Positions 35,365-35,673 of a stretch of 64,000 bases of DNA are shown piece after piece; position 1 is the stretch's first letter; the number at the start of each line of letters is the position of its first letter. Below the pieces are notes generated by a model. The model ran no database searches, was not told the origin of the DNA, and saw only the letters and a program-made list of their open reading frames with translations. Origin of the DNA: Escherichia coli 042. Lineage in GTDB: Bacteria; Pseudomonadota; Gammaproteobacteria; Enterobacterales; Enterobacteriaceae. The translations under genes were made by a program, and so were the position numbers. Location: NCBI RefSeq assembly GCF_000027125.1, contig NC_017626.1. One strand, given 5' to 3'.

Positions 35365-35673
35365 TTAACAACCGTTATCAATTATCCCCTTTTTTTTCGG
35401 GTAGTTCCTGAACATCTCACCGCCAGGTTTCTGTAAGCCCATCCCGGTATGTGTGCGGTTTATGGCCTCTTTCAGTATTCCGAAATTATCCGGTATGACT
35501 GGTTGGCGCGCTGCCTTACGGATACATTCCGCGCGACGCTTTGCCACCTGTTCGCGCTCCTTGTCAGTGCTCACCAGCCACATAACATCAGCCCAACGTG
35601 CCGCCGCTCTCCGGTACAGCCCTTTAGCCTCCAGTTCTTCCGCTTTGCTGTCTTTAATCATGCTGTACCTCAC
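35365..35673 (-). CDS. PerC-family transcriptional regulator (Pch-like)
   Basis: 102-aa ORF with the PerC signature MIKDSKAEELEAKGLYRRAAARWADVM. Confidence 0.8.
   Translation of the reverse strand: MRYSMIKDSKAEELEAKGLYRRAAARWADVMWLVSTDKEREQVAKRRAECIRKAARQPVIPDNFGILKEAINRTHTGMGLQKPGGEMFRNYPKKKGIIDNGC

Follow-up and report, generated by a model that had tools for sequence, protein, structure and literature searches.

A PerC-family gene as accessory cargo of a capsid-forming Escherichia coli satellite: a likely PchE-type regulator acting outside the LEE

The window, i.e., the whole stretch of 64,000 nucleotides from Escherichia coli 042 that was analyzed here, carries a gene of the PerC/Pch family of small regulators within a satellite that encodes its own capsid. 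The gene is accessory cargo and does not belong to the satellite core, and the seven complete genomes carrying the most similar segment (at least 99.3% identity) are without the LEE markers ler and escN. The explanation that best accounts for these observations, and which we regard as rather probable, is that the gene encodes a functional PchE-type member of the PerC family, which is optional for the satellite and would alter the expression of H-NS-associated genes of the host, not of the LEE.

The ORF spans exactly 35365..35673 on the minus strand according to the ORF list. Read from the GTG at 35673, its product has 102 aa, which is how it had been presented in the preliminary description of this DNA. 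This GTG is not preceded by a Shine-Dalgarno sequence and overlaps the one belonging to the next possible start, an ATG at 35661, from which a 98-aa protein (MIKDSKAEELEAKGLYRRAAARWADVM...) is obtained that is the sequence actually quoted in that description. The starts of all homologues align at this ATG, at the motif MI.D, and PGAP calls a 297-nt version of the gene in other genomes. Judged by the Shine-Dalgarno sequence, the homologue starts and the PGAP calls, the ATG at 35661 is most likely the start codon, so that the ORF as such is retained, with the minus strand and a length of 98 aa instead of 102 aa. The coding sequence and its ribosome-binding site are located as follows:

35365..35661, minus strand: perC/pchE-type coding sequence, 98 aa plus stop from the preferred ATG, with the GTG-start ORF reaching 35673 (ORF list, Pfam, homologue starts)
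35668..35671, minus strand: Shine-Dalgarno sequence GAGG, with a spacer of 6 nt to the ATG at 35661 (direct reading of the sequence)

The 98-aa protein is identical to RefSeq entry WP_000588636.1, named “PerC family transcriptional regulator”, and the identical protein is present on 519 contigs. Comparison with diverged homologues gave dN/dS values of 0.22-0.32, which indicates that the gene is under purifying selection. Taken together with the Pfam match given below, the number of contigs and the dN/dS values show that the ORF is real, well past what is expected by chance.

Residues 1-89 of the protein (hereafter the query) match positions 1-89 of the 90 positions of the Pfam PerC model PF06069 (E=3.5e-35, 120.6 bits), and a match to phrog_994 was obtained as well (E=3e-42). 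All 12 columns that are invariant in an alignment of 42 family sequences (D4, A7, L10, E11, G14, RRAA17-20, R22, W23, and C46) are kept in the query, and the core pattern …AE.LE.KG.YRRAA.RW… plus a conserved Cys is common to the query, PerC and Pch. Judged by these matches, the ORF encodes a small regulator that belongs to the PerC/Pch family over its full length, which bears out its designation as PerC-family and Pch-like in the preliminary description. The alignment with PerC and Pch proposed there as a check was performed and revealed a likeness that reaches the C-terminal helix, which rules out that merely an N-terminal motif is shared. An AlphaFold model (AF2) of the query contains four helices (residues 5-13, 16-29, 33-50, and 61-74) with a pLDDT of 78, exceeding 90 across residues 11-50. 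A Foldseek search of this model against the PDB yielded no match with E<1, only generic helical bundles (MIT/TPR-like) with E>1, and a sequence search of the PDB with the query yielded no significant match. Four helices without a known DNA-binding fold are in agreement with the published description of Pch, for which homology to known DNA-binding proteins is absent (PMC4764244).

A lead with respect to the mechanism is provided by the ANR family (Aar, Rnr). The query scores 12.4 bits (E=0.11) against the NCBIfam ANR model NF033650 and does not reach the cut-off of 32 bits. Over residues 6-52, it nevertheless covers almost all 54 positions of the model, and the N-terminal ~50 residues of all eight other PerC-family proteins tested do so in the same register; these members include PerC, PchA-type proteins, PchD and PchE, with E-values from 5.6e-8 to 0.11, and one PerC-family member, P0091, reaches the cut-off with 32.5 bits. 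Both families comprise small helical proteins tied to H-NS biology (PMC5570504, PMC4764244), and ANR proteins bind AraC-type regulators and H-NS (PMC5570504, PMC10148876). However, PerC-family proteins have an additional C-terminal helix and tail, and ANR proteins are negative regulators acting via protein-protein contact, whereas Pch was reported to bind DNA and not to co-precipitate with H-NS (PMC4764244). PerC is not mentioned in the ANR papers examined. We use the alignment as a lead to a possible mechanism and do not claim ANR membership for the query.

For the placement within the family, the query was compared to PerC (pMAR2), group-1 Pch (EDL933, 104 aa), PchD (ECs_1388, Sakai), PchE (ECs_1588, Sakai), and a 54-aa “PchE” variant, P0101. 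The identity to the query is 59% for Sakai PchE (full length), 47% for group-1 Pch, 45% for PerC and 36% for PchD, and 81% for P0101 over its 54 residues. P0101 had first been taken as PchE and was rejected as such, as it is a truncated variant and Sakai PchE has 90 aa. It represents a premature-stop variant in PICI-like islands without capsid genes (L004-L007: 10001-10165, ~15835-17590), which are arranged in the order int-AlpA-...-DUF4222-AAA_25 helicase-SSB-ProQ-PerC and contain, roughly 6 kb further downstream, another PerC-family gene, which encodes 98 aa. In a neighbor-joining tree (200 bootstraps), the query falls outside a clade formed by PerC and group-1 Pch, which has 89% bootstrap support; the query is placed among satellite-type sequences together with PchE, with 12% bootstrap at the joining node. 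Based on this comparison it appears fairly probable that the query belongs to a satellite-borne PchE-type lineage and not to the PerC/PchABC lineage. Given the identity of 59% and the bootstrap value of 12%, any transfer of the PchE phenotype to the query is weak. Percent identity is likewise not decisive for the question of ler activation, since PerC and PchA/group-1 Pch are as distant from each other (47-48%) as they are from the query.

The genomic contexts of these relatives differ. Sakai PchE (group 3), encoded on Sp7, occupies the same ssb-pch-hyp-major capsid slot as the query and resembles it in size class and domain layout, while 41% of the residues and the C-terminal tail are different. 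PerC (pEAF/pMAR2, EPEC E2348/69) and PchA/B/C belong to the same Pfam family, align over the full length and have the same 12 invariant residues as the query. However, perC is part of the plasmid-borne perABC operon and the group-1 pch genes of EHEC are located downstream of a lambdoid prophage lysis cassette, and neither of these settings matches that of the query gene, which follows ssb and precedes the capsid module in a satellite.

The carrier and the genes around the perC-type gene comprise the following features:

27711..42969, minus strand: whole satellite, ~15.2 kb, with imperfect 14-bp att repeats at 27711-27724 and 42956-42969 (alignment with terL of GTEN_97)
33086..34255, minus strand: major capsid protein of the satellite, encoded at the start of the packaging module
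34542..35048, plus strand: 168-aa ORF (ORF168), phrog_5789, function unknown, AT-rich, between the predicted early operon and the capsid operon
35055..35074, no strand assigned: bidirectional terminator-like hairpin GGCCTGG...CCAGGCC, predicted to terminate the early operon as well as the convergent ORF168 (consensus scan only)
35084..35332, minus strand: 82-aa gene, phrog_1957, function unknown, predicted to close the early operon, kept on the downstream side of the variable slot
35677..36102, minus strand: ssb, single-stranded DNA-binding protein (PGAP), directly upstream of the perC-type coding sequence
36313..38433, minus strand: DUF927 primase/helicase-type replication protein
38430..38729, minus strand: DUF4222 protein, just upstream of the primase gene

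The bounds of the element and its att repeats, which are identical at 12 of 14 positions, follow from the intact terL gene of strain GTEN_97, which aligns in two blocks to positions 26681-27724 and 42956-44283 of the window with an overlap of 14 bp. In the window and in near-identical genomes, the satellite is inserted within terL, the large-terminase gene, of a lambdoid prophage of the HK97-like type and splits it; GTEN_97 contains the same prophage with an uninterrupted terL. Fragments of terL flank the satellite at 26981-27706 and ~42956-43983, an arrangement that is also found in many other E. coli genomes. A satellite with its own TerL inserted into the terL of a prophage would disable the packaging of that prophage. 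At this junction a single 807-aa ORF (41560-43983, minus strand) runs from the prophage terL start via the N-terminal TerL fragment and the att repeat in frame into the satellite integrase, and in NZ_OZ501612.1 the integrase call by PGAP is longer and overlaps the terL fragment; this could be a coincidence, or int could be driven by the terL promoter. The late region of the prophage also contains genes for tRNA-Arg(TCT) and tRNA-Met(CAT) (48639-48715 and 48816-48891, minus strand), and the related prophage of GTEN_97 has a different tRNA set (Gly, Thr, Lys, Ile) at the equivalent place.

According to the PGAP annotation of near-identical complete E. coli regions, the satellite encodes, in this order, an integrase, two HTH regulators, BRO-N, an Icd-like protein, DUF4222, the DUF927 primase, SSB, PerC, a hypothetical protein, a hypothetical protein on the opposite strand, major capsid, prohead protease, portal, head-tail connector, HNH, TerS and TerL, whereas tail genes are absent both from these annotations and from the PHROG matches. 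By its gene content, the carrier is a capsid-forming satellite of the cf-PICI type. The placement of the gene on a self-packaging satellite, as given in the preliminary description, is thereby confirmed at the level of gene content, by the genes for capsid, protease, portal, TerS and TerL. With the cf-PICIs described by Alqurainy et al. (prototype EcCIEDL933; bioRxiv 10.1101/2022.09.08.507074), the carrier shares the integrase, excisionase/regulator-type HTH proteins and primase, the capsid-protease-portal-connector genes followed by HNH-TerS-TerL, the absence of tail genes and the size of ~15 kb. cf-PICIs are mobile, and their experimental hallmarks are induction by a helper phage, small capsids and the use of helper tails. 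The paper does not mention PerC or PchE, and a description of integration into a prophage terL was not found in the text examined.

The pchE gene of strain Sakai lies in an element annotated as “prophage Sp7; untypable” (15.46 kb), which corresponds to CP-933C and O-island 51 (Flockhart et al., PMC3378721). Its gene order (integrase … ECs_1581, primase, hypothetical, SSB, pchE, hypothetical, major head, protease, portal, adaptor, packaging, TerS, TerL) is accompanied by identities to the window satellite of 93% for TerL, 82% for the primase, 81% for the portal protein, 70% for SSB, 68% for the DUF4222 protein (compared to RgdR, ECs1581), 63% for the capsid protein and 42% for the integrase. 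The integration sites are different, as Sp7 is found between roxA and phoQ in O157 and the window satellite in a prophage terL. Judging by strain, by gene content and by sizes of 15.46 vs 15.4 kb, we infer that Sp7/CP-933C and EcCIEDL933 are the same element. A literature search found no paper naming both Sp7/CP-933C and EcCIEDL933, and a search for PerC in combination with cf-PICI gave only false matches to “percentage”. The Pch literature and the cf-PICI literature apparently treat one and the same O157 element, and among the papers searched none was found to cite both.

With respect to transcription, the perC-type gene seems to occupy the penultimate position in the early/replication operon of the satellite. 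The stop codon of ssb is found 15 nt before the ATG of the perC-type gene, the downstream 82-aa gene has an AGGAGG of its own, and a promoter scan of the ssb-perC segment revealed no sigma-70-like site. In view of the 15-nt spacing, the Shine-Dalgarno sequences and the terminator-like hairpin, ssb and the perC-type gene are probably co-transcribed, along with the replication genes of the satellite. Beyond the hairpin follows an AT-rich stretch (35-41% GC) containing ORF168, and the consensus scan placed a promoter-like site for the capsid gene at 34432-34405. ORF168 is found in only some of the related satellites and is possibly further cargo. Further upstream on the minus strand, a 357-aa ORF (39165-40238) was noted, of which only the C-terminal ~90 residues match the phage transcriptional-repressor family phrog_6196; as relatives of this region have either a pseudogene or no annotation at this place, the long ORF probably reflects over-annotation or gene decay. 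PADLOC assigned neither the PerC protein nor the products of the 82-aa gene, ORF168 and the 357-aa ORF to any defense system.

The content of the slot occupied by the perC-type gene was examined in 80 satellites gathered via their capsid protein, of which the 73 with at least 2.5 kb upstream of the capsid gene were counted. A PerC-family ORF is present in nine and ProQ in seven of these 73 related satellites, and 57 contain neither, so that a perC-family gene is missing from 64 (88%). In the clade with 75-78% capsid identity, PerC was found in none of 45 members. Even near-identical backbones differ: the window, AH19B041 and NRZ96606 contain PerC, tcmA_3 contains ProQ/FinO, and in PEC240 the slot is empty, with the capsid, protease and portal genes of the latter annotated as intact. 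In a further relative (L026) the perC-family copy is disrupted N-terminally. In coordinates of the window the slot corresponds to 35333-35676, and at the loci L010, L011 and L012-L091 it holds PerC, ProQ/FinO or nothing on backbones that are ~95% identical. Since the slot contains PerC, ProQ or nothing across related satellites, the perC-type gene is accessory cargo outside the satellite core. PerC-family genes also have other carriers, namely plasmids, lambdoid prophages, where they follow the lysis cassette, and PICI-like islands that have no capsid genes. The PICI-like islands L004-L007 contain both PerC and ProQ/FinO (ssb-proQ-perC), and on several plasmids a PerC-family gene adjoins a ProQ/FinO gene.

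The preliminary description had also recommended checking for a LEE island. A chimeric query composed of a 1.4-kb perC segment, ler and a fragment of escN was therefore searched against 5,426 complete E. coli genomes. The full perC segment was found at an identity of at least 99.3% in seven genomes, each of which had a single matching place and neither ler nor escN. Ten further PerC-positive carriers comprised seven with one matching place and three with a second one, so that at least 14 of the 17 assessed carriers are without ler and escN. As positive control, ler was detected in 697 of the 5,426 genomes (12.8%). At this rate, chance alone would predict about two LEE-positive genomes among 17 carriers, which speaks against an association with the LEE. 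A total of 34 genomes contain the perC allele (at least 94% identity, at least 80% coverage); porcine ETEC and avian pathogenic (APEC) isolates are among them, as are human and environmental ones. Related satellites do occur in LEE-positive O157. The host of the window satellite is probably LEE-negative.

Published data on the family bear directly on its possible function. PerC and PchA/B/C were reported to activate LEE1 (ler). Pch binds DNA of low GC content, with 88% of its binding regions lying within H-NS-bound regions, including the K-12 backbone, and activates LEE1 solely by relieving silencing through H-NS/StpA/Hha/YdgT (PMC4764244). [quoted passage not shown] When over-expressed, PchE represses csgD/curli and biofilm formation independently of ler and raises flagellar expression (PMC6265319, PMC7369912); most PchE phenotypes stem from such plasmid-based over-expression. 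The effect of O-island 51 on T3S/LEE was mapped to RgdR (ECs1581) and not to pchE; RgdR was shown experimentally to regulate T3S/LEE as well as motility, its RGD motif is essential, and a variant from ED1a with CGD at this position is inactive (PMC3378721). In the DUF4222 protein of the window, the RGD motif of RgdR (R20-G21-D22) corresponds to R19-P20-G21-D22 (RPGD).

We favor the following scenario for an optional PchE-type regulator. The perC-type gene would be transcribed with the satellite replication genes as part of the 3′ end of the early operon, and by analogy with the family its product may act on AT-rich, H-NS-coated DNA or on nucleoid-associated or AraC-type regulators. We infer from this that expression of surface and adhesion genes of the host would be altered, as PchE does for csgD/curli and flagella. 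Activation of the LEE would be improbable, the known hosts being mostly without it, and the life cycle of the satellite itself would proceed independently of the gene.

The preliminary description had put forward a different role, namely that of a PerC/Pch-type activator of ler, with induction and transfer of the satellite both spreading and triggering virulence regulation. Some observations are in line with such a role: the query spans the full length of the family, retains every invariant residue and is as close to PerC and group-1 Pch, both reported activators of LEE1, as these two are to each other, related satellites are present in LEE-positive O157, three of the 17 carriers have a second matching place, and cf-PICIs are mobile (bioRxiv 10.1101/2022.09.08.507074). 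However, PchE, which is the positionally equivalent protein and has the highest identity among the characterized ones, is reported to have little effect on the LEE (PMC6265319), the query falls outside the PerC+PchABC clade, the LEE is not found among carriers above its base rate, the LEE activator of O-island 51 is RgdR, and 88% of the related satellites do without the gene. The role as LEE/ler virulence regulator is thus unsupported, and we consider it unlikely, as we do the activation of ler by the query in a LEE-positive recipient. The accompanying claim that virulence regulation is coupled to satellite induction was derived from the operon position only, and SOS-inducing antibiotics lowered the expression of pchE (PMC6265319).

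A role within the satellite itself is conceivable and was given somewhat more weight, although it still appears doubtful: the protein might switch on the neighboring capsid/packaging operon or relieve its silencing, or else modulate gene expression of the helper phage. The location of the gene near the 3′ end of the early operon, shortly before a packaging module with a predicted promoter of its own, would fit this role, as would the AT-rich stretch in between, given that AT-rich DNA bound by H-NS is what the family acts on (PMC4764244), and the same position in Sp7. Nevertheless, the 64 satellites with the same packaging module and no such gene, among them PEC240, tcmA_3 and all 45 members of the more distant clade, led us to reject activation of the late operon as main explanation, and the disrupted copy in L026 as well as the family members in lambdoid prophages, capsid-less PICI-like islands and plasmids also argue against it. 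That the gene is a non-functional remnant kept by hitch-hiking could be suggested by the truncated relatives (the 54-aa P0101 and the disrupted copy in L026) and by the often empty slot; the intact full-length frame with a good Shine-Dalgarno sequence, the dN/dS values, the kept invariant residues and the presence on 519 contigs make this very improbable. A more far-reaching idea regards the slot as a swap site for global-regulator cargo, which would be either empty or filled by a ProQ/FinO RNA chaperone or by a PerC/PchE-type protein with an ANR-like N-domain and an action on H-NS-silenced DNA. Such cargo would be delivered by cf-PICIs, which with borrowed tails can pass between strains and species, and would rewire the surface and adhesion programs of the host upon arrival, and the present allele might de-silence ler in a LEE-positive recipient; taken as a whole, we think it improbable that all of this holds.

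Parts of the picture were known before, as the exact protein is listed in RefSeq under the same family name and PchE, in the same slot and element type, has been studied since 2004. The results imply that membership in the PerC family is not to be equated with activation of ler. On the O157 element, the activator of T3S/LEE was mapped to RgdR, whose homologue in the window is without the essential RGD motif. If it is true that PchE-type proteins reprogram adhesion and motility, capsid-forming satellites would constitute a route by which such regulators are spread.
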